Source of the DNA: Candidatus Campbellbacteria bacterium
GTDB lineage: Bacteria > Patescibacteriota > Minisyncoccia > Phycocordibacterales > EsbW-18
NCBI GenBank assembly: GCA_016699465.1
Contig: CP064977.1
Coordinates: 10,096-74,095 of the forward strand
Direction of reading: 5' to 3'
DNA length: 64,000 bases
Positions 37,998 through 55,277 of this stretch are shown here, piece after piece; position 1 is the stretch's first letter, and every line of letters starts with the position of its first letter. Position numbers and translations under genes: made by a program. The notes under the pieces are model-generated. The model was not told the DNA's origin, did no database searches, and saw only the letters and a list, made by a program, of their open reading frames with translations.

Positions 37998-37999
37998 AT

Positions 38000-38227: not shown

Positions 38228-38240
38228 ATGTTTTTTAAGA

Positions 38241-39371: not shown

Positions 39372-39533
39372 AACAATAATGCGTAGTAACAAGCGAATAG
39401 TGTAGCTCCCTAGGACATGCCTATTCCGCGCAAAAAATAGCAGAAGCTTCGAACTTCTTTTATTTTGTGTGTGGAATAGGCTTTTTCTATACCTGTGTCC
39501 ATACATTTTATTAAAAATTATTAATAAAATGCT

Positions 39534-40808
39534 ATGCAAAAAATACAATGGCGTGCAGAAATTCGAGAGGTTAAAGATCTTGTTCCTTGGAAAGAAAATC
39601 CGAGAAAAATAACAAAGGTCGCTCTTGAGAAATTAAAAGACAAAATCATTCAAAGTGGTTTTCATAGTGTGATCGTTGTTGATACCGACAATACTATTTT
39701 GTCAGGTAACCAAAGAAAAGTAGCTCTCACTCAATTAGGAATCAAGGAAGTCCCTGTTCTCGTTCCTGATCGTACACTCACTAATGATGAGCGTACCAAG
39801 ATTGCACTTGAAAGCAATGTGAACGATGGCGAGTGGGATTTTGAAAAGCTTAAGTCGTTTGATTTAGATCTCATAAAATTTGCAGGATTTTCTGACATGG
39901 AAATCGCAAAGTTTTGGGATGAAGACAAAGATACAAAAGACGATAAGTTTGACGTCGACAAGGAAATCAAAAAGATAAAGACACCTGTGGTGCAAAAAGG
40001 TGATCTCATTATCATGGGTGATCACAAGTTACTCTGTGCCAGTTCAACAGACATACACGCCGTACAAAAACTATTCGGAGAGCATAAGGCGACGGCTATC
40101 TATAGCGATCCACCTTTTAATATCGGGCTATCGTATGACAAAGGCGTTGGTAACACCAGAAACTATGGTGGATCTTTCGACGACAACCAGTCTCCAAAAG
40201 AGTACGTTGAATTCATTCGACAAGTATTGAAGTCTGCACTTTCTGTATCTGTTGAAGACTTGCATGTCGCATTCTGGGCGGATGAAGCCTGGGTGTGGGT
40301 TTTTCAAACGCTCTACATGGAACTGGGTATTAAGAACAGACGCTTGAATGTCTGGGTGAAGAACAATTCATCACCGACCCCTACGGTTGCTTTCAACAAA
40401 TGTACAGAGTTTTGTGTCTATGGAAGTAAAGGATCTCCATACTTGTCTGACTTGGTAAAAAATCTCAATGAGATACAAAACAAAGATCTAAGCACAGGAA
40501 ACCAATTGCTTGAAGAAATATCAAACCTCTGGGCAACGAAGCGACTTCCATCGAATCAAATGGAGCACCCAACAAGCAAGAATCCAGAATTACATCATAA
40601 GTTCATTATGCGTTGCACTAAGCCTGGCGACATTATTTTTGATGCCTTCTCGGGATCTGCTAGCACCATGATCTGTGCGGAACAATTGGGTCGCAAGGTG
40701 TACTCCTTAGAAATCGAGCCAGTATTTTGTGATTTGGCAATTCGCCGTTATGAAAAACTGACTGGTCGGAAAGCAGAGATAATCAAAAACTTCTATGAAG
40801 AAAAATAA
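39534..40808 (+). CDS. ParB-like nuclease domain fused to a beta-class N6-adenine/N4-cytosine DNA methyltransferase
   Basis: ParB N-terminal motif SGNQRKVALTQLG. Catalytic motif IV SDPPFNIG precedes SAM motif I FDAFSGSAST (beta order). Such fusions are typical of phages and plasmids. Confidence 0.8.
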   Translation: MQKIQWRAEIREVKDLVPWKENPRKITKVALEKLKDKIIQSGFHSVIVVDTDNTILSGNQRKVALTQLGIKEVPVLVPDRTLTNDERTKIALESNVNDGEWDFEKLKSFDLDLIKFAGFSDMEIAKFWDEDKDTKDDKFDVDKEIKKIKTPVVQKGDLIIMGDHKLLCASSTDIHAVQKLFGEHKATAIYSDPPFNIGLSYDKGVGNTRNYGGSFDDNQSPKEYVEFIRQVLKSALSVSVEDLHVAFWADEAWVWVFQTLYMELGIKNRRLNVWVKNNSSPTPTVAFNKCTEFCVYGSKGSPYLSDLVKNLNEIQNKDLSTGNQLLEEISNLWATKRLPSNQMEHPTSKNPELHHKFIMRCTKPGDIIFDAFSGSASTMICAEQLGRKVYSLEIEPVFCDLAIRRYEKLTGRKAEIIKNFYEEK

Positions 40809-41202
40809 ACTCCAAGATCATTTTTTTGAAGAACTGACAAAAGTACCGATTGTACAAGTTGCTTGTGAAAAAACAGGTGTCTCTCGCAATAGTGTATACC
40901 GTTGGCGGAAAGACGATGCTTCATTCTGCAAGAAAATGGATCAAGCACTTAAAGACGGTGTGGCGTTGGTGAACGATATGAGTGAGACACAGCTCCTCAC
41001 CTTGATTAAGGAAAAGAATTATCCCGCCATCAGTTTCTGGCTCCGTCACCGCAATGACAACTACAAAAATAAACTCGAAATCACGACAAAAGAAGAAAGC
41101 GAAGCACTCACACCGTCACAGGCAAAGATCGTCCGCAACGCTCTTAAACTCGCTTCTATTACCAAGAGCAAATCCATTAAAAGAATTAACAAAGAAAAAT
41201 AA
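40795..41202 (+). CDS. Putative terminase small subunit (HTH protein immediately upstream of TerL)
   Basis: HTH-like VACEKTGVSRNSVYRWRK. The call rests on size and position. Confidence 0.45.
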   Translation: MKKNKLQDHFFEELTKVPIVQVACEKTGVSRNSVYRWRKDDASFCKKMDQALKDGVALVNDMSETQLLTLIKEKNYPAISFWLRHRNDNYKNKLEITTKEESEALTPSQAKIVRNALKLASITKSKSIKRINKEK

Positions 41203-41204
41203 TT

Positions 41205-42734
41205 ATGACTAAAATAATTGAAACCAGTTTAGTGAATAAAATGATGAAAGATAAGTTAGTGCGAACCTCTATCACTAAAGATAGCTTCTTGTACTTCTTC
41301 CACTTCTATTATGCCCATTATGTAAAGTATGAGACTGCGGACTTCCAGAAAGAGATCATCCACCATTTAGAAAAGTCAGCCATAGAGAATTTGTATGTGG
41401 TGGCATTTCGTGGATCAGGAAAATCAACCATGGTGACAACTGCATACCCGATCTGGGCGATCCTTGGAAAACAACAAAAGAAGTTTTGTATGATCTTCTG
41501 TCAGACCAGAATACAAGCCAAGCAACACATGATGAACATTAAAAACGAACTTGAGGGAAATGATCTGCTCAAGAAAGACCTCGGACCATTCCAAGAAGAG
41601 AGCGATGAATGGGGTTCATATTCTCTTGTGTTCAACAAAAGCGGTGCCAGAATTACAGTTGCTTCAACTGAACAAAGTATCCGTGGGTCACGACACAATG
41701 AACACCGCCCCGATCTCATCATCTGTGACGACGTTGAAGACGTACAGTCCACCAAAACACGCGAGGGGCGGGATAAGACATACCAATGGCTCTATGGCGA
41801 GGTTATTCCTGCGGGAGATAGAAAGACCCGATTGATCATTGTTGGAAACCTCTTACACGAAGATTCGCTTCTCATGCGTATCAAGGATGATATTGAGAAC
41901 AAACGCTCAAGAGGTGTCTTTAAACAATACCCACTTTTAGATGAACAAGATGTTTGTTTATGGCCTGGAAAATATCCAGAACTCAAAGATGTTGAAGAAC
42001 AGAAAATGAGTGTGGCGAGTGAGATATCGTGGCAGAGAGAATACTTGCTCCGTATTATTCCAAGTGACGATCAAGTAATTTATCCAGAGTGGATTCAATT
42101 CTATGACGAACTTCCTGGAACAAAACATAAGGGCTATCGTGGTACCTATGCAGGAGTGGATCTTGCAATCTCAACCAAAGATTCAGCGGACTATACTGCT
42201 ATCGTGTCTGCTCATGTGTATTCTCGTCGGGAGAAAATGAGAATCTATATTCTTCCAAATCCAATAAAACAGAAATTAAATTTTCCTGCACAAGTTGATC
42301 TCATGAAGAACTTCAAGAATACACAAATGCCAAGAAGACAAGATACGCTGTTTGTTGAAAGTGTGTCGTATCAAGAAGCCTTACCACAAATGCTTGAACT
42401 TAACGGTGTTGAAGCAGAGTCAGTAAAGCCAAAAGGAGACAAAAGAACAAGACTATCTCTCACTTCGACTTCTATCAAATCAGGAATCATTAAGTTTCCG
42501 CGGCACGGATGTGAAGATCTGATCCAAGAGCTTGTTGGATTCGGTGTTGAAAAGCATGATGACTTAGCCGATGCTTTTTCGCTCCTTATTAACTCGACAT
42601 TAGACAAACACGCACATGACGGTACGGTACTTATGGCATGGGTTAGTACAGATCGTAACTATGGCTGTGACGACGATGACATCTTATATTACAGCGATTA
42701 TGTTGATGTAGAAAAACCTATTCGTTTATCTTAA
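41205..42734 (+). CDS. Phage terminase large subunit
   Basis: Walker A AFRGSGKST and Walker B LIICDDVED. RNase-H-like nuclease domain with acidic residues (GVDLAISTKDSADYTAIV, HDDLADAF). Confidence 0.85.
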   Translation: MTKIIETSLVNKMMKDKLVRTSITKDSFLYFFHFYYAHYVKYETADFQKEIIHHLEKSAIENLYVVAFRGSGKSTMVTTAYPIWAILGKQQKKFCMIFCQTRIQAKQHMMNIKNELEGNDLLKKDLGPFQEESDEWGSYSLVFNKSGARITVASTEQSIRGSRHNEHRPDLIICDDVEDVQSTKTREGRDKTYQWLYGEVIPAGDRKTRLIIVGNLLHEDSLLMRIKDDIENKRSRGVFKQYPLLDEQDVCLWPGKYPELKDVEEQKMSVASEISWQREYLLRIIPSDDQVIYPEWIQFYDELPGTKHKGYRGTYAGVDLAISTKDSADYTAIVSAHVYSRREKMRIYILPNPIKQKLNFPAQVDLMKNFKNTQMPRRQDTLFVESVSYQEALPQMLELNGVEAESVKPKGDKRTRLSLTSTSIKSGIIKFPRHGCEDLIQELVGFGVEKHDDLADAFSLLINSTLDKHAHDGTVLMAWVSTDRNYGCDDDDILYYSDYVDVEKPIRLS

Positions 42735-43635
42735 AAGAGACAATCGCAAGTGGTAGTTCAAAGTCATCCATTGAGATAATGAATGGACCTTCCTTACCTT
42801 TCTTGTATAGGTACAAAAATCCATCTCTAATATCTAGAGAGGATATTTTGTCGTACGGAATACTGAAGTGTTTATTAAGACCAATATATCCAAGATTTTC
42901 TGTTGTTAGATAAAAAGTACCAGCATCGTCTGTCATCATGACATTCACTTTTTGTGGATTAATTTTGACATTACCAACTCGGTATCTCAACCCCTTGGCA
43001 ATTTTTATAGATGCAGAAAAACCACTGTAGTTATAACTCTTGGTTATCGATTTGTTTTTGATAATAAATGCCTTACTAACATAGTGCAGTTTTTCACCAT
43101 TACTTAAATTAACATTCAAATTAGGAACATCAATAGTTGGAAGTTTACCCTCGTCGATTAGATAAAGTGTATGGTATTTATTAAAATCACTCTGATTGTA
43201 AGCGAGATTATCAGTTGAAAGATTTAGATCTGAATAAATTTTAACTAGTTCCTTTCGCTCTGCTTCTGTAATTCGTGAGTCATCAGTGATCTTGTCAAAG
43301 AAAATTTTGAATCCTGCTAAGTTGTATTTCTCAACATCCTTGTCAGTTAAATTATGCTCCTTTTTAATTTCTTCTAAAATTATTTTCTCTTCATCTGAGA
43401 GGTTGCCGTCAATTAATAGCTCTTTAATTTTCTGAGAATATAAATCTAAGCCTTTTCTTTTTGGTGATCTGAATACTTTGGTAAATAAAAGATAGATTAC
43501 ACCGACAATAAGACCTATATAAACGAGGTTTTTAAATAAATCAAAATTAACTATAACAATAGTAAGAACAACGAGAACAATAATTATCTGTTTAAAAAGA
43601 GATAATTGTTTAAACTTTTCTAAAAGATTTTTCAT
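42718..43635 (-). CDS. Hypothetical membrane protein: two TM helices, TerB-like helical repeats, and a bacterial-PH-like C-terminal domain
   Basis: TM helices at the N-terminus. DGNLSDEEKIILEEI and SRITEAERKELVKIY resemble TerB. TDDAGTFYLTTENLGYIG...SIPYDKISSLDIRDGFLYLYKKG resembles a bPH domain. Confidence 0.4.
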   Translation of the reverse strand: MKNLLEKFKQLSLFKQIIIVLVVLTIVIVNFDLFKNLVYIGLIVGVIYLLFTKVFRSPKRKGLDLYSQKIKELLIDGNLSDEEKIILEEIKKEHNLTDKDVEKYNLAGFKIFFDKITDDSRITEAERKELVKIYSDLNLSTDNLAYNQSDFNKYHTLYLIDEGKLPTIDVPNLNVNLSNGEKLHYVSKAFIIKNKSITKSYNYSGFSASIKIAKGLRYRVGNVKINPQKVNVMMTDDAGTFYLTTENLGYIGLNKHFSIPYDKISSLDIRDGFLYLYKKGKEGPFIISMDDFELPLAIVSFKINE

Positions 43636-43989
43636 AAACTTTGGACGGTTTTGTTATGAAGGATCGTATAGGTAGCAAAAAGCTCCTAGCCAGATCCGAT
43701 ATACCCCGTGAGGTATACCCATACCCGTTTCCAGATATGACCGTCCAAAGTAGACTCTGACTAGGAGTTCTTTACTTTGGACGGATTTTGCGACCATATC
43801 CTGTAATTGCTTACAGGGGTTAGGTCTCTGTATTAACTTGTAAATGAATAATAACATTTTTGACCCTATTATTCAATTTAAATTCTATCGCAAACCCCTA
43901 GTTTTGCTAAGGCTAGTACGCGAGTACGCTACGTTTTTTTAGTTCTGCATAGACTTAGCAAGACTAGTGTTCTCTGTCATTAATATAGT

Positions 43990-45309
43990 ATGGAAACATA
44001 TACCACAGCCAGAATTGGTAAGGAGGTTATAGCACCAGTACAAAAAATTAGGTACGTTCTATATGCTCGTAAATCAACCGAATCAGAAGAACGCCAAGTT
44101 CTTTCGATTGATTCGCAAGTAAAGGAAATGCTTGAGCTTGCCGAACGTGATGGACTGGAAGTCGTAGAAATACGAAGAGAATCGCATAGTGCAAAAGAAT
44201 CAGGACAACGACCTGTGTACAAGGAAATTTTAGAAGATGTACGACGAGGACGATTTAATGGAATCCTCACTTGGGCACCCGATCGTCTTTCTCGTAACGC
44301 TGGTGACTTGGGAAGTATTGTCGATCTCATGGATCAGCAACTACTAATGGAGATTCGGACATACGGTCAACAGTTTAAAAACTCACCGAACGAAAAGTTC
44401 CTTTTAATGATTTTGTGTTCTCAAGCAAAACTTGAAAACGACAACAAGAGTATTAACGTAAAACGAGGATTGCGAACAAGAGTAGAAATGGGATTATGGC
44501 CTGGTCCTGCTCCAACAGGCTATATGAAAGAGAAACGAATGGATCGAAAGTGTGAGACACTCCTTGATCTAGAACGAGCACCAATTATTAAAAAGATGTT
44601 TGAGAAAGTGGCGTATGAACATTGGAGTGGTAGAAAAATCTATAATTGGCTCAAATTTGATTTAAACCTCAGAACCGCTGTAGGAAAGAAACATCTCAGT
44701 TTAGGAAATATTTATAAAGTTTTAGATAACACCTTTTATTACGGAGTTTTTGAGTATCCAAGACGATCAGGTAATTGGTATACAGGAAAGCATGAACCAA
44801 TAGTGACTAAGGAATTGTTTGATCTAGTACAAGCACAGATAAAAAGTAATGTGTTAAGAGTAGAAAACAAGGAGTTTGCTTTTACTAAAATGATGCTCTG
44901 TGGATTATGCGGATCTGGCATATCAGCAGATGAGAAATTCAAGAAAATCAAGAATGGTGGTGTTGCTCGATACGTCTATTACGGCTGTACTAAAGCGCGC
45001 GGGGTGGATTGTAAATGTGGGTATACAGAAGAAAGAGAATTGCTCAAGCAGTTCAACGAACTAATCGAAAAGATAAATTTAAATGAAATAGAAGTCAAAG
45101 AAAAGATAAAATATGATGTTGAGCGATTTTCTAAACTACAAAAATTCTTACTAGGGACTAAAGAAAAAATTGATATCCCAAATATAGACGTACGAGGATA
45201 TGCGAAGTATGTCTTAAAAGAAGGAACCGATATTGAAAAGCGAGAACTACTTGGATGTTTGAAGAGTAAGATCTGTTTGGCGAATAAAAAGATTACTTTG
45301 AAAGAATAA
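43990..45309 (+). CDS. Large serine recombinase (phage-type serine integrase)
   Basis: Resolvase catalytic domain (YARKSTESEERQ...SIDSQ), a recombinase domain, and a zinc ribbon CGLCGSG...YYGCTKARGVDCKC. Confidence 0.9.
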   Translation: METYTTARIGKEVIAPVQKIRYVLYARKSTESEERQVLSIDSQVKEMLELAERDGLEVVEIRRESHSAKESGQRPVYKEILEDVRRGRFNGILTWAPDRLSRNAGDLGSIVDLMDQQLLMEIRTYGQQFKNSPNEKFLLMILCSQAKLENDNKSINVKRGLRTRVEMGLWPGPAPTGYMKEKRMDRKCETLLDLERAPIIKKMFEKVAYEHWSGRKIYNWLKFDLNLRTAVGKKHLSLGNIYKVLDNTFYYGVFEYPRRSGNWYTGKHEPIVTKELFDLVQAQIKSNVLRVENKEFAFTKMMLCGLCGSGISADEKFKKIKNGGVARYVYYGCTKARGVDCKCGYTEERELLKQFNELIEKINLNEIEVKEKIKYDVERFSKLQKFLLGTKEKIDIPNIDVRGYAKYVLKEGTDIEKRELLGCLKSKICLANKKITLKE

Positions 45310-45341
45310 GTACAAAACTAATAGGACCCATCATTTTGACA

Positions 45342-45365
45342 AGTATACCCCCTAAGGGGTATACT
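45342..45365. promoter_or_regulatory. Candidate CsoR operator, a perfect palindrome agtatacccc-cta-aggggtatact
   Basis: Perfect inverted repeat read directly. Located 2 to 25 bp upstream of the csoR start. Confidence 0.55.
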
Positions 45366-45366
45366 T

Positions 45367-45648
45367 TTGCCTATGGAATACTTAGACAAAAAGAGTAAGG
45401 AAAAAATTGTTCGCAGGCTCAAACTTATTGAAGGTCAAATCAGAGGCCTTCAAAAAATGGTCGACAATGACACTTATTGCATTGATGTTATTACGCAGAC
45501 TTCGGCAGTCAAACAAGGTCTTTCCAACATTGAAGACTTGTTGCTTGAAAACCATCTGAATCATTGCGTAGAACATGATATGTCTTCGGGTAAGCTTGTT
45601 AAAGCAAAAAGCGAGGTCATGAAAGTCTACAAGCTTAAGAGGAAATAA
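45367..45648 (+). CDS. csoR: CsoR/RcnR-family metal-sensing repressor
   Basis: 93 aa with the W-X-Y-Z ligand pattern (C in DTYCIDV, H and C in HLNHC). A four-helix DUF156-like length. Confidence 0.75.
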   Translation: MPMEYLDKKSKEKIVRRLKLIEGQIRGLQKMVDNDTYCIDVITQTSAVKQGLSNIEDLLLENHLNHCVEHDMSSGKLVKAKSEVMKVYKLKRK

Positions 45649-45662
45649 AGCTACAATCATAT

Positions 45663-47597
45663 ATGTTTAAACAACTTTTACAAAACAAAAAATTTAAATA
45701 CTTACTCATCGCTCTTGTGGCGGTTATTCCTTTTGAAGCCCTGTCTCTTTCGGGAAAACACTTACCGTATCCTATTGAACTGGGAGCATTGGGGCTGATT
45801 GTCATTATATTCGGTCGAGATGTCTTCAAGAAAGGAATCATAAGCCTTTTGAGACTCCGTTTTTCAAGCATCAATCTTTTGATGACTATTGCTGTTATCG
45901 GCGCAGTTGCAATTGGCGAGCTTGAAGAAGCAGCGATTGTCATAATTCTCTTCTCTCTCGGTAATGTGCTTGAAGATTTTGGGATTTCCCGTAGCAAATC
46001 TTCACTTCAAGAGTTGGTAAACAAGACACCGAAGCAAGCAACTCTCAAGGACGGAACGGTTTTGCCACTAACTGAACTCGCAGTAGATATGATCATTGTC
46101 GTAAAGCACGGAGATATTATTCCCGTTGACGGTACGATTGTTTCAGGTAATTCGCTTGTAGATGAATCATCAATCACTGGAGAACCGCTTCCAAAAACAA
46201 AAGTGGCTGGCGATGCTGTGTTCGCAGGAAGCGTGGCAAGTGATGGATATCTTGAAGTAAGGGTCACAAAGCTTTCAGGTGAAAGCACGTTGCAGAAGAT
46301 AATAAATCTTACCTATGAAGCAGCCGAACGAAAATCAAACGCTCAAGCCTTCATTGAAAAATTCGCTAAATACTATACGCCACTCATCTTGCTTTCCTCT
46401 GTGCTCTTAGTGGTCATTCCTGTCCTCATTTTTGGCGAGCCATTTCAAAAGTGGTTTATTCAAGCTCTAACCCTCCTTATTATTTCTTGCCCGTGTGCTT
46501 TAGTCATCTCTACTCCTGTTAGCGTATTCTCAGCAGTAGGCAATGCCTCACGCAGAGGAGTTGTGATTAAAGGTGGTCGCTTCTTGGAGGAAATGGGTAA
46601 GATTAAAGCGATAGCATTCGACAAGACTCGCACCATTACCAAAGGTACGCCGATCGTAACTGATGTTATTCCTTTTGGCGAGAATACTGAGCAGGATGTC
46701 ATCTCATGCCTTTCAGGGCTTGAAACATTTTCTGAACATCCAATCTCAAAAAGTATCATTGCCTATGCGACAGAGAAGAAAATGGATTTGCATACGTTCG
46801 ATTCTTACAAAGCAACTTCAGGCAAAGGCATAGAAGGAGTTTGTCTTGTGTGTACCGATAGTCATCGCTGTGCAGGTACGCTTGCATATATGAGAGATGA
46901 GCATGGAGCAATTGACGACAGTATCACTAAAAAGGCGGAGGGACTTGAGAAACAAGGAAAGACTGTTATTTTTGTTTCCAATGGAGCAGAAATCAAAGGA
47001 ATTGTCGGAGTGAGTGATGAAATAAAAGAAGACAGCGCGCGAGCAGTTAGCGAACTCAAGAAAATAGGTATCACTTCAATCATGCTTACTGGCGATACGC
47101 TTGCTCCGGCACAGGCTGTGGCGAACACCGTTGGTATTGATGAAGTGTATGTGTCACTTCTACCAGAAGAAAAAGTTGCACGAATACAAGAGCTGAAAAA
47201 GAAATACGGATCAGTTGCCATGGTTGGAGATGGGGTCAACGATGCTCCAGCATTGGCTACGTCATCTGTTGGTATTGCTATGGCTTCAACTGGATCAGAT
47301 GTTGCAATTGAGAATGCTGATATTGCGATCATGAACGACAAACTATCCCTTCTGCCAGAGCTTATCTCGATTGCACAAAAATCAAATGGCATTATTCGCT
47401 TCAATATTGCGCTTGCCTTGATTACTAAAGTTGGATTCCTTGGACTTGCTGTTTCAGGTAATGCTAACCTTGTTATGGCGATTGTTGCGGATGTTGGAGT
47501 AACGATCTTTGTGGTAATCAATTCGTTGCGTCTTTATAACTACGACAGCACAACCGTAGCAGATAACCATTCTGATGGGACGTGCAGTAGTTGTTAG
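45663..47597 (+). CDS. Heavy-metal P1B-type ATPase without an N-terminal metal-binding domain. The phosphorylation motif reads DKTRT.
   Basis: CPC in SCPCALV, the phosphorylation site AFDKTRTIT, GDGVNDAPAL, eight TM helices, and a Cys-rich C-terminus (GTCSSC). Confidence 0.85.
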   Translation: MFKQLLQNKKFKYLLIALVAVIPFEALSLSGKHLPYPIELGALGLIVIIFGRDVFKKGIISLLRLRFSSINLLMTIAVIGAVAIGELEEAAIVIILFSLGNVLEDFGISRSKSSLQELVNKTPKQATLKDGTVLPLTELAVDMIIVVKHGDIIPVDGTIVSGNSLVDESSITGEPLPKTKVAGDAVFAGSVASDGYLEVRVTKLSGESTLQKIINLTYEAAERKSNAQAFIEKFAKYYTPLILLSSVLLVVIPVLIFGEPFQKWFIQALTLLIISCPCALVISTPVSVFSAVGNASRRGVVIKGGRFLEEMGKIKAIAFDKTRTITKGTPIVTDVIPFGENTEQDVISCLSGLETFSEHPISKSIIAYATEKKMDLHTFDSYKATSGKGIEGVCLVCTDSHRCAGTLAYMRDEHGAIDDSITKKAEGLEKQGKTVIFVSNGAEIKGIVGVSDEIKEDSARAVSELKKIGITSIMLTGDTLAPAQAVANTVGIDEVYVSLLPEEKVARIQELKKKYGSVAMVGDGVNDAPALATSSVGIAMASTGSDVAIENADIAIMNDKLSLLPELISIAQKSNGIIRFNIALALITKVGFLGLAVSGNANLVMAIVADVGVTIFVVINSLRLYNYDSTTVADNHSDGTCSSC

Positions 47598-47606
47598 GAA
47601 AATATA

Positions 47607-47640
47607 GTTAGAAAAAAGAACGACAATTGTCGTTCTTTTT
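47607..47640. terminator. Rho-independent terminator after the P-type ATPase
   Basis: aaaaaagaacgacaattgtcgttcttttttctg. Confidence 0.6.
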
Positions 47641-47737
47641 TCTGCAACATGTAGGTTTGTGGGTCGCACTTAGTACATAACTAAATGGGTCATCAAAACT
47701 AACAGTCATAGACAAAGTAAGGATTAATTAACTAGGT

Positions 47738-47960
47738 ATGCGAACAAAACTTGAAGAAGAGATCAAGCGATTTAACTGACAGCAAAGACTTGCAACCAAA
47801 AGAACGCCAAAGTATTCAATCAACGAAGATGCCGTGAATATTAGAGAATATGCCAAGTATGTACTTAGAGGAGGGTACTCCACTGGAGAAGCATGAACTG
47901 ATTGGACATTTGAGGAGCAGGTTAATACTGAAAGAGAAGAAAATCACCTTGGTAGTGTAA
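47738..47960 (+). pseudogene. Degraded C-terminal fragment of a second serine recombinase gene, with stops and frameshifts
   Basis: Nucleotide and translated similarity to the last roughly 75 codons of the 43990-45309 recombinase (atatgccaagtatgtacttagaggagg versus atatgcgaagtatgtcttaaaagaagg; ...aaagagaagaaaatcacc versus aataaaaagattactttg). In-frame stops are present. Confidence 0.6.
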
Positions 47961-47979
47961 TGGAGAAATTAAGTAGTTG

Positions 47980-48008
47980 ACTTCCAAAACCATATACCCT
48001 ATACTATA
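47980..48008. promoter_or_regulatory. Candidate CsoR operator, a perfect palindrome ccatataccctata-c-tatagggtatatgg
   Basis: 14-bp perfect arms, immediately upstream of the second csoR. Confidence 0.55.
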
Positions 48009-48014
48009 GGGTAT

Positions 48015-48302
48015 ATGGTCAAACAAACACACAATCATGTTCACAAGCACGGTGAGCCGAATACAAAAGCTCGCAAAGTTATTAATATGGCAATAGGAAG
48101 TGTAGCTAAGATTCCTGAGATGGTCGACGATGGACGATACTGCCCTGAAATTATTCAGCAGATCGATAGTGTCGTAGGTCTTTTACATAGCGCACGAAAA
48201 GAATTACTAAAGGGTCACTTAGAGTCTTGTCTTGCTGAAAGGTTAAAGACCGACAAGGAAGGTTCAATCAAAGAATTGTTAAAAATCTACAACATGCAGT
48301 AG
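48015..48302 (+). CDS. csoR: CsoR/RcnR-family metal-sensing repressor (second copy)
   Basis: RYCPEII (Cys), HLESC (His and Cys), 95 aa. Confidence 0.75.
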   Translation: MVKQTHNHVHKHGEPNTKARKVINMAIGSVAKIPEMVDDGRYCPEIIQQIDSVVGLLHSARKELLKGHLESCLAERLKTDKEGSIKELLKIYNMQ

Positions 48303-48340
48303 ATTTTTAGTGTTTTATTATTAAATTTATATAAAAAATT

Positions 48341-48904
48341 ATGTCTAAAATTTCAACAACATTAGCAATTTCTCTTATGGTAGTAACAAGTGTTTTGGGG
48401 TGGGTTGCTGGGTATGCCAGTACTGCTGACTATAAAGTGAATATGTACGACAAAACAACTATGGATTTTGGTCGTCCAGATCGAACACTTGATCTTCGTT
48501 ATATTGATGCGATGATTGCTCATCATAGAGGAGCAATGCTTTTGGCTACACAAGCAAGTACACAGACACAGCGACAAGAAATGAAGGATCTCTCTGCGAT
48601 GATTTTGCGGGATGAGCCAAAATCAATTGCTGAGCTATACACATGGAAAAAAGATTGGTATGGAGATACAAAACAAGTAAAAGACCCAATTGTTTCTAAC
48701 ATTGGAACGTATGATGAGAAATTTGATCTTCGCTTTCTTAATGCACTTATCGCACACCATGAAGCAGGATTGCTCATGACAAAAGAAATAAAGACAAAAT
48801 CAAGTAGAACTGAAATTTTAAATAATGCGGATGCGGTTGATACATTCCTTACAACAACACTTAAGATCTTCAAAGACTGGAGAACACAGTGGTATAACAT
48901 CTAA
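48341..48904 (+). CDS. DUF305-domain protein (a copper-homeostasis-associated four-helix protein), secreted
   Basis: Two DUF305 repeats: YIDAMIAHHRGAMLLA and FLNALIAHHEAGLLMT. Confidence 0.75.
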   Translation: MSKISTTLAISLMVVTSVLGWVAGYASTADYKVNMYDKTTMDFGRPDRTLDLRYIDAMIAHHRGAMLLATQASTQTQRQEMKDLSAMILRDEPKSIAELYTWKKDWYGDTKQVKDPIVSNIGTYDEKFDLRFLNALIAHHEAGLLMTKEIKTKSSRTEILNNADAVDTFLTTTLKIFKDWRTQWYNI

Positions 48905-48918
48905 TATAAAATCCCTAT

Positions 48919-51189
48919 ATGACAAATAAAACACTAAAAATTAAAGGGATGCATTGTGCAAGTTGTGCAACTATTATCACCAACAAGGTTTCTAAACTTG
49001 GAGGTGTAGATGCTGTTAATGTTAATTTTGCGACTGAAAAAGCAAATGTTTCATTTGATGACACAATTGTTTCTGTACATCAAATGAATAATGAGATTGA
49101 AAAATTAGGATACACATTTGTTGATGAAACTAGTTCTCATACTATGGAAGATCACAGTATGCATACAGGTATCAATGAATCAAAAGATGAAAAGTTGAAA
49201 GAGCTTCTTACTATGAAGACAAAAACACAGTTTGTGTTACCGATTGCTCTTCTTGTTTTTATCTTAATGATGTGGGATATCGGTGCGAAATTATTTACAT
49301 CAATTCCAAATCTTCCATTACCGATGTCTATCTTCAACACCATCTCTATGGTGCTTGCGAGTGTTGTATTGTTTTGGATTGGGCAACCCTTTCTACAAGG
49401 AGTAGTAAAATTTGCTAAATATCGTGTCGCTAATATGGATACTCTTATTGGTATTGGAACGCTTGTTGCATACCTTTACAGTATCAGTATTACACTCTTC
49501 CCTTTGATGAGGGTGGCCTTGAAACTTCCTGAAACCACTTATTTTGATGTGACTATAGTAGTAATTGGTTTCGTGATGTTAGGTAAATATCTCGAAGCAC
49601 GCTCAAAACTTCGTACTGGTGAAGCAATAGAAAAACTTCTAGGCCTTCAAGCAAAAACCGCCTTACTATGGCGTAATGGTGTTGAGGTGGAAGTACCTGT
49701 GCACGAAGTACAAATCGGTGACATCATTATCGTGAAGCCAGGATCAAAAATCCCTGTAGATGGAGTTATTGTCGAAGGATATTCATCTATCGATGAATCA
49801 ATGATTACAGGTGAGCCAATTCCTGTTGATAAAAAGACTGGAGACTTTGTTGTTGGTGCAACAATTAATAAACAAGGTAATTTCAAATTCAAAGCGACAA
49901 AAATTGGATCTGATACTGTACTCGCTCAAATCATAAAAATGGTTGAAGATGCACAAGGATCAAAAGCCCCGATACAAGCAATGGCTGATAAAATTTCTAG
50001 CGTGTTTGTGCCAATCGTACTTGGCATAGCGGTACTCACTCTACTCCTTTGGCTTACTGTGGGTACATCAGCGCTCGGTTTCTCAACAGCTCTTTCTTAT
50101 GGGATTCTTTCGTTTGTAGGAGTTCTTGTTATTGCATGTCCGTGTGCATTAGGACTTGCAACACCTACAGCCATTATTGTTGGTGTTGGAAAAGGTGCAG
50201 AACACGGGATCCTTATTCGAAACGCAGAAGCACTAGAGAAGCTCAGTCATGTAGATACTGTTGTTCTCGATAAGACAGGAACAATAACTAAAGGAAAACC
50301 TGAAGTAACTGATATTATCTCTCTTGATACAACATGGGCAGAAGCAGATATCCTTCGTGTAAGTGCGAGCGTAGAAAAACTTTCTGAGCACCCTCTCGCA
50401 GATGCTGTTGTTATTAAGGCAAACGAACAAAAAATATCTCTTGAAACCGTTACAAATTTCCAAGCACTCGAAGGTGTTGGAGTCGAAGGTATGATTGGCA
50501 ATAAACACATAGCAATTCATAAACCATCAAAAGATGTCTCTATTACAGGTAATATCAAAGAACTACAAGAGCAAGGTAAAACAGTTGTTATTATAGAAGT
50601 TGATAAAAAACAGATTGGACTTATTGCACTTTCAGATACTTTAAAAAAAGAATCAAAAGAAGCGGTTGCAAAACTCCATGCAAGAAATATTAAAGTAATA
50701 ATGCTCACAGGAGATAACTATTTAGCAGCAAGCTATATAGCGAAACTCGCAGGTATTGACGCAGTTATTGCTGAAGTTATACCTCAAGAAAAGGCAGGAA
50801 AAATAAAAGAACTACAAGATGGCGGTGCAATTGTCGCTATGGTTGGAGATGGTATAAATGATGCCCCTGCTCTTGTACAGGCTGATGTCGGTATCGCTAT
50901 GGGGACAGGGACAGACGTCGCCATTGAATCAGCAGGTATCACACTTTTAGGTGGTGATGTTTCCAAAATTGCACAAGCAATAAAGCTGTCGAAGATGACA
51001 ATGCGAGGTATCAAACAGAATCTTTTTTGGGCATTTATCTTTAATGTTGTAGGTATTCCTCTTGCTGCAGGACTCTTCTATCCAGTATTTGGTTGGTTAT
51101 TAAATCCAGCGTTTGCAGGACTTGCTATGGCATTCTCAAGTGTTTCTGTAGTATCGAACTCATTACGAATTAAGGCTAAGAAACTATAA
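48919..51189 (+). CDS. copA: Copper-translocating P1B-type ATPase
   Basis: N-terminal HMA domain (GMHCASCA), [20 protein letters not shown]. Confidence 0.9.
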
Positions 51190-51193
51190 TTAT

Positions 51194-52777
51194 ATGAAAA
51201 ATAAAACACCTTATATAATCTTGGCACTAGTAATCGTTGTAGTTATAGCTCTATTTAGTTTTAGTAAAAATACATCATTAATTAAAAATAATGTTACACA
51301 AAACGACTCAGGGAAAACAGCAATAGAAAGTTCATTTGTTGATTTAAAAAATGGAGATACATTTGATTTGACTGCTTCGTATATAACAAGAAGTATTAAT
51401 GGCACAAATCAAAAAATGCTTGCATATAATGAGTCAATCCCTGGGCCAACTATTCGAGTAGCACAAGGATCAGAGGTAACAATAAATTTCAAAAACAACA
51501 CAGATATTCCACAATTACTTCATTCTCATGGTGTGCGAATGGATAACGCATATGATGGATCGCAAATGGTGCAAAAAGAAATGAAACCCGGTGAATCATT
51601 TTCCTATAAATTAAAATTCCCTGATGCTGGTATATATTGGTACCATCCCCATGTTCAAGAAGTATATGGGCAAGGTTTGGGACTTTACGGAGCTTTTATT
51701 GTAACACCGACCGATCCCGCATATTTCCCTGCGGTAAACAGAGAGATTCCATTATTTCTTTCAGATATTCCATTTGAAAATGGAAGTATTACTTTAAACA
51801 AAAATAAAACAAGTCACACACTCATGGGACATTATGGCAATATTATGCTCGTAAATGGAGATGATAATTACATACTCAAAGCAATCTCTGGTGAGGTTGT
51901 AAGAATGTATGTTGTTAACTCAGCAAACGCTCGACCCTATAATTTTGCAATAAATGGTTTAAAACTAAAATTAGTAGGCAGTGATAGTGGTGCTTATGAA
52001 AAGGCGTCATTTGTAAACAGTGTAGTTCTCGGTCCATCTGAACGAGCAATTGTAGATGTACTTATACCGAAAGCAGGTACTTACGAAATACAGAATCAGA
52101 CCCCTAGTAAAACCTACTCACTCGGAACTATTTCAGCTAGTGAGGAGAAAATAAATGTCTCATATGAAAAAGAATTTAATATTCTTCAATCAAATATAGC
52201 AACAATAAAAAGCATTGATCCATTTAGAAGTTATTTCAATAATACTCCAGATAAAAATATTACCCTTACTCTTGATATGGCAGGAAATATGATGGGAATG
52301 CAAGGTATGGGTCACGGAAATCATATGATGTCCGATGGATCTTCAATGGGCGGGTCAATGATGGGGTCTAGCCCTGACGGTATTGAATGGGACGATTCGA
52401 ATCAAATGATGAGTGCCGTGACTAATACTGATTCCATCAAATGGAAGATTAAAGAGCAAAATACTGGAAAAGAGAACAAAGATATTAATTGGACATTTAA
52501 GAAGGATCAACCTGTTAAAATTAGGATTTTTAATGATCCAAATTCCATGCACCCAATGCAACACCCTATTCATTTTCATGGACAGCGATTTCTTGTAGTT
52601 AGCCGTAATGGTATACAACAAACAAATCTTGCATGGAAAGATACTGTTCTTGTTAAATCAGGAGAAACGGTTGATATTATTCTTGATCCTTCGAATGTTG
52701 GTACATGGATGGCACATTGTCACATTTCAGAACATCTTGAATCAGGAATGATGCTTCAGTTTACAGTTGAAAAATAA
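51194..52777 (+). CDS. Multicopper oxidase (CueO/laccase-like) with a Met-rich insert
   Basis: Copper ligands HSHG, WYHPH, HPIHFHG and HCHISEHLESGMM. A Met-rich segment MMGMQGMGHGNHMMSDGSSMGGSMMG. Confidence 0.85.
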   Translation: MKNKTPYIILALVIVVVIALFSFSKNTSLIKNNVTQNDSGKTAIESSFVDLKNGDTFDLTASYITRSINGTNQKMLAYNESIPGPTIRVAQGSEVTINFKNNTDIPQLLHSHGVRMDNAYDGSQMVQKEMKPGESFSYKLKFPDAGIYWYHPHVQEVYGQGLGLYGAFIVTPTDPAYFPAVNREIPLFLSDIPFENGSITLNKNKTSHTLMGHYGNIMLVNGDDNYILKAISGEVVRMYVVNSANARPYNFAINGLKLKLVGSDSGAYEKASFVNSVVLGPSERAIVDVLIPKAGTYEIQNQTPSKTYSLGTISASEEKINVSYEKEFNILQSNIATIKSIDPFRSYFNNTPDKNITLTLDMAGNMMGMQGMGHGNHMMSDGSSMGGSMMGSSPDGIEWDDSNQMMSAVTNTDSIKWKIKEQNTGKENKDINWTFKKDQPVKIRIFNDPNSMHPMQHPIHFHGQRFLVVSRNGIQQTNLAWKDTVLVKSGETVDIILDPSNVGTWMAHCHISEHLESGMMLQFTVEK

Positions 52778-52780
52778 TTT

Positions 52781-53416
52781 ATGAAAAAACAGCCTAAAAA
52801 TAAAATTTCAAATAAAGTGTGGATTACAGGGATACTGATTGTGATACTCGGATTATCTCTATGGAGCTACCATCACGCAAAAAGAACAGTCACAGTATTG
52901 GATAATCCTGAATTACTCCCTGGCATACAAACAGGAACTGCCCCGTGGGAAGCTGAAACTGTAAACCTCCGTGCTCGCTTAAATGCAGTTCATTTACCAG
53001 CACTTTCTTCAGAAGGGTCTGCTCTACATTTACATCAACATCTTGATATTTTTGTAAATGGTAAATTAATACCTGTGCCATCAAGTATTGGAGTTAATCA
53101 GTCGGTCGGTTTTATCTCTGACATTCATACTCATGACAAAACAGGAGTTATTCATGTTGAGTCACCGAGAATTCAAACATTTACATTGGGTCAGTTCTTT
53201 GATATTTGGGGAGTACAGTTTACTCAAAAATCAATTGGGGGATATGTGGTTACAGAAGATAACTTATTAAAAGTTTTTGTTAATGGTAAACAATACATAG
53301 GTGACCCAAGACAGCTTCCGCTTGAGACACATCAAGAAATTGTCATTACTTACGGAACAGAGAAAGAATCTCCAAGTACTATTCCAAGTTCATATCAATT
53401 TACTGCAGGATTATAA
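52781..53416 (+). CDS. Hypothetical secreted protein in the copper cluster (His-rich segment HLHQHLD)
   Basis: Signal/TM segment. No recognisable domain. Confidence 0.4.
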   Translation: MKKQPKNKISNKVWITGILIVILGLSLWSYHHAKRTVTVLDNPELLPGIQTGTAPWEAETVNLRARLNAVHLPALSSEGSALHLHQHLDIFVNGKLIPVPSSIGVNQSVGFISDIHTHDKTGVIHVESPRIQTFTLGQFFDIWGVQFTQKSIGGYVVTEDNLLKVFVNGKQYIGDPRQLPLETHQEIVITYGTEKESPSTIPSSYQFTAGL

Positions 53417-53439
53417 ATTATAAACATAACCAAAATATT

Positions 53440-54450
53440 ATGAAAAATTACACATTACATGTTTCTGGAACTCATTGTGCGTCATGCAAAATATTAATTG
53501 AGGATATTCTTGGTAATCAAGATATGGTCAAAGGTGTTCATGTAAATCTAAAAAAAGAAATTGTTCATATTGATACTGATAGCAATAGTAGCCCAGAAGA
53601 GTTAGCCTCACTGCTTACTGAAAAGATTAAATCACACGGCTACACTCTTTCTGTTGATAAGATTATTAAAGAAAAACAGTCTGATGACATTATTTGGAAA
53701 GCAATACCAATTGGCTTAGTGTTCTTGGTATTATTCTTTATTCTTCAAAAATCAGGTATTTTAAATCTTGGTATCGGTGGCAAAACTACACCCGCAACAA
53801 GTTTTATTATTGGACTCATAGCTTCAGTCTCAAGTTGCCTTGCAATCGTAGGAGGACTTGTTCTGTCACTTTCAGCTAAGGTTATGCAAGATGATGGTAA
53901 GTCTGCAAAAAAACCATTTATCCTATTTCACCTAGGTAGAGTGCTTGGATTTGCTTTACTTGGAGGATTGCTTGGTCTTATTGGTAAAGCAATTGGAATA
54001 AACTTTATGTTCTCCGCAATACTTGGACTAATTGCTTCAACAGTAATGATTCTCCTCGGTTTAAATCTTGTTGGAGTTTTCAAAAAGAGCAAATTAACAC
54101 TACCAAGTAATTTATTTGCGTATTTTAGAAAAGTAGAACACGCGACTATTGCGCCGATCCTTATTGGTATAGGTACATTCTTCCTTCCATGTGGATTTAC
54201 TCAATCAATGCAAGTCGCCGCACTTTCAAGTGGGTCATTTATTTCTGGCATGGGATTAATGCTTGCATTCGCCCTCGGTACACTTCCAATGCTCGCACTA
54301 TTGTCTTTTAGTTCAGTATCATTTGCTCATTCAAAACACGCTCCATTGTTCTTTAAATCAGCAGGTGTCGTAGTGATCGGCCTTGGAATCTTTGCTTTAC
54401 TTGCTGGTCTTGCAGGTATCGGTATTATTAGCCCTTTGTTTAATATATAA
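53440..54450 (+). CDS. HMA-domain protein fused to a multi-TM (CcdA/DsbD-like or TauE-like) membrane domain
   Basis: N-terminal GTHCASCK HMA motif, then about six TM helices. Confidence 0.55.
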   Translation: MKNYTLHVSGTHCASCKILIEDILGNQDMVKGVHVNLKKEIVHIDTDSNSSPEELASLLTEKIKSHGYTLSVDKIIKEKQSDDIIWKAIPIGLVFLVLFFILQKSGILNLGIGGKTTPATSFIIGLIASVSSCLAIVGGLVLSLSAKVMQDDGKSAKKPFILFHLGRVLGFALLGGLLGLIGKAIGINFMFSAILGLIASTVMILLGLNLVGVFKKSKLTLPSNLFAYFRKVEHATIAPILIGIGTFFLPCGFTQSMQVAALSSGSFISGMGLMLAFALGTLPMLALLSFSSVSFAHSKHAPLFFKSAGVVVIGLGIFALLAGLAGIGIISPLFNI

Positions 54451-54457
54451 TTATCAT

Positions 54458-54853
54458 ATGAATAAAACTGTCTCAATCATTATTATTAGCGCACTTCTTA
54501 TAGGTATAGGAATCGTTGTTTTGGGTGGATCTTCAAAGGGGGGCTCAGAAACTGCTACAGGAGTCCAAAACAGCGAAATAAGAGATGGTATACAATACAT
54601 AACCATAGATGCTAAAGCAGGATACTCTCCAAAGGTTTCTACCGCAAAAGCAGGTATCCCTACAAAACTAATAGTGAAAACTAATGGTACTTACGACTGC
54701 TCTGCTTCTTTGGTTATTAAATCATTAAACTATCAAAAAATTCTTTCTCAGACAGGAGAAGAAACTATAGATATTGGTACACCTGTAGCAGGAACTCCAT
54801 TGAGAGGGGTTTGTGGTATGGGGATGTATAATTTCCTCATTAACTTCAGTTAA
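54458..54853 (+). CDS. Putative cupredoxin-like domain protein (secreted)
   Basis: Start at MNKTVSIIIIS. A beta-rich domain with a C-terminal Cys/Met (RGVCGMGMYNF). Weak assignment. Confidence 0.35.
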   Translation: MNKTVSIIIISALLIGIGIVVLGGSSKGGSETATGVQNSEIRDGIQYITIDAKAGYSPKVSTAKAGIPTKLIVKTNGTYDCSASLVIKSLNYQKILSQTGEETIDIGTPVAGTPLRGVCGMGMYNFLINFS

Positions 54854-54859
54854 ACGCAA

Positions 54860-54900
54860 CAACAAAAAGAGCAACAAATTATGTTGCTCTTTTTGTTGTT
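54860..54900. terminator. Rho-independent terminator closing the copper cluster
   Basis: caacaaaaagagcaacaaattatgttgctctttttgttg. Confidence 0.6.
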
Positions 54901-54991
54901 ATCTTGCGCGCAAAGTTCTAGCGTCTCAAATGGGTTGATTTTAAACCTATTAAAAATACTTAAAAACTAAGCATCTCGTGCTATCACGATT

Positions 54992-55081
54992 TGGCGGAGA
55001 CGGGAGGATTCGAACCTCCGATCCGGTTTCCCAGATGCCGGTTTTCGAAACCGGTGCCTTCAACCACTCAGCCACGTCTCC
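54992..55081 (-). tRNA. tRNA-Ser(CGA), type II, CCA encoded
   Basis: Reverse complement gives GGAGACG-TG-GCTGAGTGGTTGAAGGC, anticodon stem-loop CCGGT-TTCGAAA-ACCGG, a long variable arm, and T-arm GGAGG-TTCGAAT-CCTCC. Confidence 0.8.
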
Positions 55082-55277
55082 ATTTCATTCCAACAAGGCT
55101 GAGTGCTTGTCCACCTCACTTCGCTCGGATGAAAACCTCCACAGGAGCTTTTCATCCACTCAGCCACGTCTCCATTTCATTCCGACAAGGCTGAGTGCTT
55201 GTCCACCTCACTTCGCTCGGATGAAAACCTCCACAGGAGCTTTTCAACCACTCAGCCACGTCTCCATCTCGGTCTTC
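55061..55277. repeat. 92-bp tandem repeat (about 2.4 copies). Each unit is the first 21 nt of tRNA-Ser plus 71 nt of upstream sequence.
   Basis: Unit starts at 55061, 55153 and 55245 (caaccactcagccacgtctccatttcattcc...). The first unit overlaps the real tRNA 5' end. Confidence 0.85.

Follow-up and report, generated by a model that had tools for sequence, protein, structure and literature searches.

A predicted integrative element carrying two CsoR-type metal modules beside a tRNA-Ser gene in a Campbellbacteria genome

Introduction

The described systems that come closest to the locus reported here are the staphylococcal cassette chromosome (SCC) islands, phage satellites, tRNA-linked islands and prophages, and CsoR-regulated copper operons. 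The locus lies in a 64 kb stretch of a Candidatus Campbellbacteria genome (contig CP064977.1), called the window and numbered from its first letter, in which an intact large serine recombinase gene is followed by two sets of metal-resistance genes, each opened by a csoR repressor gene, and then by tRNA-Ser(CGA). A sequence-only reading of the window had taken this arrangement as an island built stepwise from two tandem recombinase-operator-csoR-ATPase modules. Recombinase-borne DNA at tRNA-Ser, assembled in several steps, proved a fitting description, but the mobile unit is probably a larger element, window 36343-54997, in which the metal modules are cargo.

SCC islands (SCCmec, ACME and COMER, with the recombinases CcrA, CcrB and CcrC) resemble this element in using a large serine recombinase, in having a single conserved housekeeping gene, at its 3' end, as the specific insertion site, in forming tandem or composite arrays with decayed recombinases, and in carrying metal-resistance and defence cargo. 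A CsoR-controlled copper locus has been described on SCC-linked DNA (PMC5947656). CcrB is the best NCBIfam similarity of the recombinase found here, with a score of 116 that falls far short of the equivalog cutoff (900), and by this comparison the element lies outside the staphylococcal SCC family itself. Unlike SCC, which inserts at rlmH/orfX, it appears to target the CCA end of tRNA genes (Ser, Trp, Gln), and it has one recombinase gene and no ccrAB pair. Its core differs as well, with small and large terminase subunits (TerS, TerL), a ParB-methylase fusion, an S24 repressor and a LOOT RNA, and its hosts are Patescibacteria.

Phage satellites such as the phage-inducible chromosomal islands (PICI) and the PICI-like element (PLE) of Vibrio cholerae are likewise small integrated elements; in gene content they too combine a repressor and an integrase with genes for packaging and cargo directed against phages, and have no capsid, portal or tail genes. 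PLE uses a large serine recombinase (PMC6002521). The present element is unlike satellites in having both TerS and TerL, and its metal-resistance cargo is unusual for them; no replication module or helper phage was identified for it. With tRNA-linked islands and prophages it shares insertion at a tRNA 3' end, low GC content, accessory cargo and tandem accretion. Those elements normally have tyrosine integrases and a 15-50-bp direct repeat of the tRNA 3' end, whereas here we find a serine recombinase, a 4-bp GCGG identity and a left arm that merely resembles a tRNA 3' end.

The metal genes have counterparts in the CsoR-copZA operons of Mycobacterium tuberculosis, Bacillus subtilis and Streptomyces lividans, which share with them a PF02583 repressor with Cys/His/Cys ligands, an autoregulated operon, a P1B-1 CopA, and a pseudopalindrome with G/C tracts and a TAC...GTA dyad over the promoter. 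The element differs in lacking a separate CopZ, in its extra CopM-like, oxidase, HMA-DsbD_2 and cupredoxin-like genes, in the dyad spacing of its second palindrome (13 nt vs 9 nt), and in the pairing of its first csoR (csoR1) with a Zn/Cd/Pb-class pump. These metal genes are ordinary, and the interest of the locus lies in the vehicle: the element family, its targeting of tRNA ends, its arrays and its link to LOOT.

An element with conserved ends beside tRNA-Ser(CGA)

We read window 36343-54997 (~18.65 kb), which has conserved ends on both sides, as a single integrated element from a family that is widespread in Patescibacteria; taken as a whole, we judge this explanation probable. Its limits and target are as follows.

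36343-54997, whole element with two ends, GCGG core at 36343-36346 and 54994-54997
36343-36452, plus strand, left end: 82-nt tRNA-3'-end-like stretch (GCGGGCGGTCTCGTGTTAGAACC...), then conserved TCTCGTGC-GGACTAAAAAGTGACAAAAG; kept in family loci
54858-54993, plus strand, right end: terminator hairpin at 54858-54900 (perfect 19-nt inverted repeat) and conserved motif GCATCTCGTGCTATCACGATTTG
54992-55081, minus strand, predicted target tRNA-Ser(CGA) (ARAGORN; Rfam 59 bits)

The strongest comparison is with a second locus, L091, which is 99.5% identical to window 36341-45296 and 47964-55081 and in which both flanks are unrelated and the tRNA-Ser is a different one. This identity between different flanks and tRNA genes sets the element at 36343-54997. 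Conserved backbone synteny of the whole cluster, which the sequence-only reading had named as evidence against its own interpretation, was not what the comparison returned. The same reading had proposed a check of base composition, which is foreign: the element has 37.7% GC vs 43.9% in the backbone; GC at third codon positions (GC3) is ~24% in the copper genes vs 30-41% in backbone genes.

Related loci were drawn from a species-representative set (one genome per species), in which 446 loci have a relative of the recombinase. The window proteins were mapped onto the 80 best of these, which are 71-99% identical. In ~25 family loci the left end starts precisely at GCGG or GCTGG, and the A/T-rich host DNA before this start is unrelated between loci. 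The order at this end is GCGG (GCTGG in a Gln-targeting member), the 82-nt tRNA-3'-end-like stretch, and TCTCGTGC...AAAAAGTGACAAAAG. At the opposite end, the motif GCATCTCGTGCTATCACGATTTG stands immediately before the tRNA 3' end in most family loci, so that ..gcaTCTCGTGCTAtCACGAcTTG/GCGG directly adjoins it, and most loci with enough fetched downstream sequence have a minus-strand tRNA 0.2-10 kb downstream of the recombinase, preceded by ..TCTCGTGCTAnC..TTG. The tRNA keeps its position and orientation across the family and is usually Ser, with Trp or Gln in more distant members.

Identity between the two junctions is limited to the 4-bp GCGG, which fits a serine recombinase, and we infer the CCA end of tRNA-Ser(CGA) as the point of integration. 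The attachment site of the circular form (attP) would then read ..CACGATTTG-GCGG-GCGGTCTCG.., and a tandem junction in L088 reads ..CTCGTGCTATCACGACTTG-GCGG-GCGGTCTCGTGTTAGAACC.., as expected of attP. The model predicts an empty target site of the form ...GCTAGTATTTTCAT/GCGGAGACGGGAGGATTCGAACC and an excised-circle junction of the form ...CATCTCGTGCTATCACGATTTG-GCGG-GCGGTCTCGTGTTAGAACC..., flanked by the cupredoxin-like gene and, across the junction, by the CBASS effector gene Cap15.

A crossover at the 8-bp TCTCGTGC, present at 36425-36432 and again at 54974-54981, was considered and rejected, as homology in L091 and ~25 other loci begins 82 nt further left, at GCGG; these copies are internal and possibly serve as accessory binding sites. 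The left arm matches tRNA 3' ends at 10-19 of 27 positions in loci with the standard GCGG/GCTGG register, including GCGG and a TTnGAAC box, and at 7 of 27 positions in L061, where the left end is shifted by 2 nt. The possibility that each left arm mirrors its own target was also rejected, with mean matches of 13.4/27 to the tRNA of the same locus vs 13.1/27 to those of other loci; the only locus-specific trait is the start, GCGG for Ser vs GCTGG for Gln. On these alignments the left arm is a generic resemblance to a tRNA 3' end, and an Rfam scan did not call it as a tRNA.

Several further observations concern the end motif and the tRNA genes. A 2-mismatch copy of the right-end motif (TATCTCGTGCTATT) occurs at window 18261-18274, ~230 nt upstream of tRNA-Trp (18504-18575), in an orientation unfit for an element end; matches resembling this motif occur in the window at chance level. 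Upstream of tRNA-Ser(CGA) and outside the element, a 92-bp tandem repeat spans 55059-55270 (2.3 copies, 96-98% identical), its unit starting with the 5' 23 nt of the tRNA gene; the repeat is absent from L091. Beside many family members, ARAGORN assigns the tRNA-Ser an ACU anticodon (loop UUACUAA, A34), often back to back with a normal tRNA-Ser(GCU), and an A34 serine tRNA is unusual for bacteria. The ACU genes were called at the following loci.

L002, 12450-12539, ACU-anticodon tRNA-Ser
L091, 16150-16239, ACU-anticodon tRNA-Ser
L007, L010, L011, L022, L031, L043, L047 and L059, ACU-anticodon tRNA-Ser

A recombinase family shared among Patescibacteria

The gene by which the family is recognized is the last gene of the element core.

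43990-45309, plus strand, intact large serine recombinase, 439 aa (Resolvase 9e-21, Recombinase 4.5e-14, Zn_ribbon_recom 6e-5)

The product thus has the Resolvase, Recombinase and zinc-ribbon domains of large serine recombinases, the last at 23.7 bits, just under the Pfam cutoff of 25.3; it matches a PHROG integrase (5e-59) and has a YARKST motif with the Ser nucleophile at residues 25-30. In protein data its relatives fill thousands of clusters, many 85-99% identical. Copies attributed to separate groups (Campbellbacteria, Nomurabacteria) reach 98-99% identity, with 92% in Taylorbacteria. An IMG/VR 'viral' contig (L101) is another family member.

In about half of the best 80 loci, the window included, the recombinase is syntenic with an upstream terminase module. 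The recurring order is the gene for a 137-aa protein (in some), the ParB-methylase, TerS, TerL (absent from some), 0-7 kb of variable DNA and the recombinase, often with the S24 repressor gene further upstream. The variable DNA between TerL and the recombinase includes a type III restriction-modification (R-M) system and a reverse transcriptase in relatives, and other family members carry Thoeris. Minimal members were also seen (L029, L030, L042, L050), in which the left end lies ~150 nt upstream of the recombinase with no terminase module between them; these are 3.2-3.7 kb long, as measured in L029 and L050, the fetched sequence of L030 and L042 ending before the right end. The true mobile core seems to be the recombinase with its ends.

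A literature search found no description of this element family, which is apparently large and undescribed. Its abundance bears on the earlier suggestion that such an island is atypical for the candidate phyla radiation (CPR), a view hard to keep with 446 recombinase-related loci and an exact match of the second CsoR protein (CsoR2) indexed in 260 collection blocks. CPR bacteria, or Patescibacteria, have tiny genomes and we found few reports of mobile elements in them, yet the present family stands at hundreds of loci, with a cargo that ranges over CBASS, Thoeris, R-M systems, reverse transcriptases and copper/zinc resistance. Its defined ends, defined tRNA target and intermediates (minimal, full, tandem, collapsed) make gene flow in these uncultivated episymbionts testable, and genome engineers may take an interest in a serine integrase that is small and whose tRNA target is simple and conserved.

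A broader proposal joins these traits: an undescribed and very successful Patescibacteria family whose recombinase targets the CCA end of several tRNAs, whose left arm imitates the tRNA 3' end, and in which LOOT, a structured RNA, always travels with the recombinase gene. We offer this joint reading only tentatively. Under it, a left arm that imitates the tRNA 3' end would recreate the target at each insertion, and cargo-bearing elements would pile up and fuse at tRNA genes; LOOT may act in the control of recombination or in recombination itself. If this holds, the family, rather than phages or plasmids, may be a main route by which CPR bacteria exchange near-identical defence and metal-resistance genes across genera.

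The double metal arrangement as a probable collapsed tandem array

Between the two metal modules lie the remnants of an element boundary.

47610-47704, plus strand, right-terminus remnant: terminator hairpin of the first ATPase gene (47610-47643) and 61-62 nt, cut 8-9 nt short of the end
47705-47960, plus strand, recombinase C-terminal pseudogene (stub) of ~85 codons with two in-frame stops and one frameshift

Window 47609-47705 is 100% identical to a segment of L037 and 97% identical to one of L017, where GTTGTCAAT/GCGG leads on from it into the left end of the next element. In L109 the same terminal segment comes after a 91% identical ATPase gene and abuts tRNA-Ser. These contexts identify the segment as the right terminus of an element, joined to the stub at 47704/47705.

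The stub had been noticed earlier as a fragment starting at 47738 and taken as a decayed duplicate of the first recombinase. Alignment shows that it is a true remnant, matching residues 358-437 of the intact protein (combined E = 1e-9, tblastn), and moves its start to 47705. Its ancestry is another matter: with its frame repaired, the stub gave 90 tblastn hits on recombinase C-termini in the fetched family loci, and the best 25 of these are only 37-45% identical (E = 1e-14 to 1e-16), which places it in a distant recombinase lineage and not with a copy of its neighbour. L109 has a near-full-length, decayed recombinase gene whose 3' end matches the stub at 81.7% nucleotide identity; a search of 5.8 billion proteins for an intact parent returned only 15 short stubs or fusions at 67-87% identity. 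In L110 and L111, in parallel, comparable stubs are fused to the 5' end of a metal gene.

Intact tandem arrays of family elements are present in L021, L088, L017, L037 and L061, and are complete in L021 and L088. With the terminal 62 nt fused to a recombinase stub, the double arrangement is most likely a collapsed tandem array. One element would have carried csoR1 and the first ATPase gene at its right terminus, and a second, adjoining element would have brought the distant recombinase lineage and the csoR2 operon. A deletion that began 8-9 nt short of the first element's right end and reached to about codon 355 of the second recombinase would leave one element with one working recombinase and both cargos. 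The serial insertion, internal end remnants and decayed recombinases by which composite islands of the SCC kind are known are thus found here as the 47609-47705 remnant, the 47705-47960 stub and the L021 and L088 arrays. Homologous exchange inside the recombinase gene clearly adds to the mosaic as well.

Two metal modules under putative CsoR operators

The first module contains the following features.

45336-45365, plus strand, promoter-like site TTGACA-18-TATACT, 11/12, best promoter match in 43600-55100; overlapped by palindrome 1
45342-45365, palindrome 1, AGTATACCCC-CTAA-GGGGTATACT: 10-nt perfect arms, 4-nt spacer
45373-45648, plus strand, csoR1, 91 aa from ATG (the gene callers' start) or 93 aa from TTG at 45367 (PF02583 E = 2.3e-25)
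45663-47597, plus strand, ATPase1, P1B-2-class (Zn/Cd/Pb-type) (TIGR01512 486 bits, above cutoff 313.5)

CsoR1 keeps the Cys...His-x3-Cys ligands of its best solved relatives, the CsoR structures 4M1P and 4ADZ, its YCIDV...HLNHC aligning with YCIDI...HANHC of 4M1P. The contigs with exactly this CsoR1, 17 in all, are short and all end in the terminator hairpin.

ATPase1 had been taken as a P1B ATPase without an N-terminal HMA domain in a copper/heavy-metal resistance island. A Pfam search likewise found no HMA domain, but by its models and motifs the protein is a Zn/Cd/Pb-class and not a copper-class pump: the copper model TIGR01511 gives 354 bits, under its cutoff of 397. In Arguello's classification the P1B-2 class is defined by motifs of the kind seen in the translation, namely SCPC (CPC), NIALALITK (N-x7-K) and ADVGVTIFVVIN (D-x-G-x7-N). 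With scores under the ZntA equivalog cutoffs and no HMA domain, ATPase1 is a divergent P1B-2 member.

The second module is longer.

47977-48005, plus strand, promoter-like site TTGACT-17-TATACT, 10/12 match; overlapped by palindrome 2
47990-48018, palindrome 2, perfect 29-nt palindrome
48015-48302, plus strand, csoR2, 95 aa, His-rich N-terminus (PF02583 E = 4.9e-16)
48341-54853, plus strand, copper operon of six genes, tightly spaced on one strand
48341-48904, plus strand, DUF305/CopM-like (CopM 2e-10)
48919-51189, plus strand, CopA with HMA domain, 756 aa (TIGR01511 590 bits, above cutoff 397; HMA 6e-15)
51194-52777, plus strand, multicopper oxidase with Met-rich stretch (CueO-like 1e-46)
52781-53416, plus strand, membrane-anchored protein, 211 aa, 12 His in 211 residues
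53440-54450, plus strand, HMA-DsbD_2 fusion
54458-54853, plus strand, cupredoxin-like

Pfam, NCBIfam and the open reading frame map place the genes and palindromes listed by the sequence-only reading at its coordinates or within a few bases of them, and its assignments for the DUF305, CopA, oxidase, fusion and cupredoxin-like genes all hold. Its 'His-rich' label for the 211-residue protein does not, with only 12 His. CopA has the motifs GMHCASC, CPC, N-x6-F-N-x4-P and M-x2-SS-x5-N in its translation, in agreement with a P1B-1 assignment. CsoR2 (YCPEI...HLESC) keeps the Cys and His-x3-Cys ligands when compared with 4M1P and 6AHX, and its His-rich N-terminus is like those of InrS and 6AHX, making its metal selectivity less certain.

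The csoR2 cassette has a constant left boundary at 47973/47974 in ten loci or contexts, in both orientations. With an identical CsoR2, the operon is also found inverted relative to the recombinase in L082-L090 (e.g. L087 9762-15899). In the inverted copies the stop codon of the cupredoxin-like gene overlaps the recombinase stop by 8 nt, and the tRNA called beside those of L084, L085, L087 and L089 is tRNA-Gln.

The pattern TATACCC-N1-14-GGGTATA occurs exactly twice in the 64 kb (0.00 expected from shuffles), each time just upstream of a csoR start, as proposed earlier for CsoR operators. Among 112 fetched loci scanned it is found in 26, once in each, and every locus checked has it just upstream of a csoR homologue. 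The two best plus-strand promoter-like matches in 43600-55100 are each overlapped by one of the palindromes. Streptomyces CsoR recognizes the consensus ATATACCCCTNAGGGGTATAT, in which a TAC-N9-GTA dyad is needed for binding (PMC3902906); palindrome 1 is a near match, with TAC-N10-GTA and C5/G4 tracts. It had been recorded before with its centre split as cta + aggggtatact, one base off the CTAA spacer. These comparisons agree with a putative role of both palindromes as CsoR operators. Each module would then be a self-contained repressible operon, in which a CsoR with the Cys/His/Cys Cu(I) ligand set should bind the palindrome over the spacer and -10 box of its own sigma-70-like promoter and metal binding should release it. 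Derepression of module 1 would yield the Zn/Cd/Pb-class efflux pump, and that of module 2 would yield CopA, the CueO-like oxidase and the CopM-like, HMA-DsbD_2 membrane and cupredoxin-like proteins.

Weighing of alternative explanations

The original proposal, that two small autonomous recombinase-operator-csoR-ATPase cassettes were each inserted by their own recombinase next to tRNA-Ser, draws on the recombinase 3' ends that stand directly before a csoR promoter, twice in the window and again in L003, L004, L005, L077, L088 and L091, and on the minimal members, which hold little beyond the left end and the recombinase. It is already largely refuted and we regard it as very unlikely: about half of the 80 loci, the window among them, keep the recombinase in synteny with the terminase module that precedes it, the sole element end inside 36343-54997 is the truncated remnant at 47609-47705, and L091 shows the whole unit, less 2.67 kb, moving as one. 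Moreover, in L003 the recombinase is 99% conserved where the adjoining csoR is only 77% identical, so the two were not inherited together. Even less credible, and already contradicted, is a native origin of the metal genes as host copper homeostasis beside tRNA-Ser, with an element landing upstream of them. Copper efflux genes are common on chromosomes, and in such elements the very end is the usual place of the recombinase (minimal form, L016), but the right-end motif is found between the cupredoxin-like gene and the tRNA and not between the recombinase and csoR. The native-gene explanation also meets a csoR2 operon that is 99.5% identical between the different flanks of L091, an identical CsoR2 in many unrelated backbones and beside tRNA-Gln, and a GC3 of 24% in the metal genes vs 30-41% in the backbone. 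The palindromes might instead, or in addition, be recombination sites for cassette capture, given that they lie within 30-60 nt of recombinase 3' ends, at the cargo junctions, and that serine-recombinase sites are imperfect palindromes. This we consider highly doubtful, as the cassette boundary is upstream of the -35 box with the palindrome always inside, and palindromes stay with csoR both in inverted cassettes far from the recombinase end (L082-L090) and in L110 and L111, where no intact recombinase gene was called. They match an experimentally defined CsoR consensus, and the element's own ends look entirely different.

A more serious competitor for the double arrangement, though still an improbable one, is the swapping of cassettes with no tandem integration, by homologous recombination in the recombinase gene and illegitimate joins downstream, the stub and 62 nt being passengers from a donor. 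Loci cease to resemble one another within 0-50 nt of the recombinase stop; the end of the recombinase tracks the cassette, KICLANKKITL with the csoR1 type and KILLSNKTITLSK with the csoR2 type; the csoR2 cassette has its one fixed left boundary in ten contexts and both orientations; and the ATPase1 block has a boundary of its own at 45662 in L109. Swapping, however, leaves unexplained a terminal segment that is cut 8-9 nt from its end exactly between two cargos, and complete tandem arrays that would give the window product by one deletion are seen directly in L021 and L088.

Several results weigh against our preferred account of an integrated element that carries a collapsed array. Exact-pattern scans of metagenome and viral contigs gave no excised circle or attP junction, and a metagenome scan with TsaD gave no relative and no empty target site from a sister genome, the exact TsaD protein not being on record; the crossover position is therefore deduced by comparing occupied sites. 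The attL and attR junctions of an integrated element are not normally substrates for serine integrases, which sits ill with the formation of tandem arrays. L091 is without window 45297-47963 (palindrome 1, csoR1, ATPase1, terminator, 62 nt and stub), but the last ~50 nt of its recombinase gene are unlike both window sequences, and it is therefore not a simple deletion derivative of the window. Across the family, similarity is lost where the recombinase gene ends, and its last ~50 nt vary in step with the cassette that follows, a pattern that also fits cargo swapping by homologous recombination within the gene. On the regulatory side, a Cu-type CsoR before a Zn/Cd/Pb-class pump is an odd pairing, and the palindrome 2 dyad is TAC-N13-GTA vs the canonical N9, with C3/G3 tracts and the ATATACCC/GGGTATAT arms kept.

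Core genes, left-end cargo and LOOT RNA

The core of the element runs in the order S24 repressor, hypothetical gene, ParB-methylase, TerS, TerL, LOOT RNA and recombinase. Cargo occupies two positions, the left end, with genes of a cyclic-oligonucleotide-based antiphage signalling system (CBASS), and the interval between recombinase and tRNA, with the metal genes.

36484-37095, minus strand, CBASS Cap15 effector, left-end cargo (Pfam Cap15_CD_rec 1.6e-25, Cap15_TM 2e-10)
37080-37997, minus strand, CBASS CD-NTase, left-end cargo
38241-38879, minus strand, S24 (LexA/CI-like) repressor (Peptidase_S24 1.6e-19; PHROG transcriptional repressor 1e-22)
38958-39371, plus strand, conserved hypothetical protein, 137 aa, core; syntenic in many loci
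39534-40808, plus strand, ParB N-terminal domain fused to N6/N4 DNA methyltransferase, core (N6_N4_Mtase 4e-29, ParB_N 3e-4; PHROG 498 4e-73; synteny)
40795-41202, plus strand, small terminase-like gene, core (PHROG terminase small subunit 2.5e-8; synteny)
41205-42734, plus strand, large terminase, core (PHROG large subunit 6.6e-79; synteny)
42718-43635, minus strand, hypothetical membrane protein, 305 aa (weak DUF5048 match; also in L077, L085, L087)
43698-43826, minus strand, LOOT RNA (Rfam RF03000; 80 bits vs gathering score 46.4), 164 nt upstream of the recombinase and divergent from it

The CD-NTase gives weak SMODS and NTP_transf_2 matches, and a CD_NTase_C assignment is precomputed for an identical gene. 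The S24 repressor is a frequent upstream member of the conserved order and is present in part of the family. For the 137-aa protein, Pfam and PHROG returned no family match. Portal, capsid and tail genes were not found by Pfam and PHROG in the core and the unannotated open reading frames, and the cargo genes all have non-structural Pfam or NCBIfam annotation; with no structural genes, a complete temperate prophage was rejected.

LOOT is present in 15 of the 21 family loci scanned, the window included. It adjoins the recombinase gene in 13 of the 20 other loci, and two more (L047, L075) have it ~1.8-4.5 kb upstream. Where it adjoins the gene, it is either divergent from it and 150-280 nt upstream (within ~300 nt), or on the same strand and 70-100 nt downstream. 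A literature search on LOOT and on CPR elements of the present type gave nothing usable, and the position beside a serine recombinase gives this orphan RNA a genomic home. Besides the window, it was found in the following loci.

L002, L015, L017, L019, L020, L025, L039, L047, L049, L072, L075, L079, L080 and L087, LOOT RNA

The last hairpin of the window LOOT (43698-43720) reads GATATACCCCGTGAGGTATACCC on the plus strand, loosely like a pair of CsoR half-operators, and the hairpin of the Rfam consensus differs from it; the CsoR-like look of this hairpin may well be chance.

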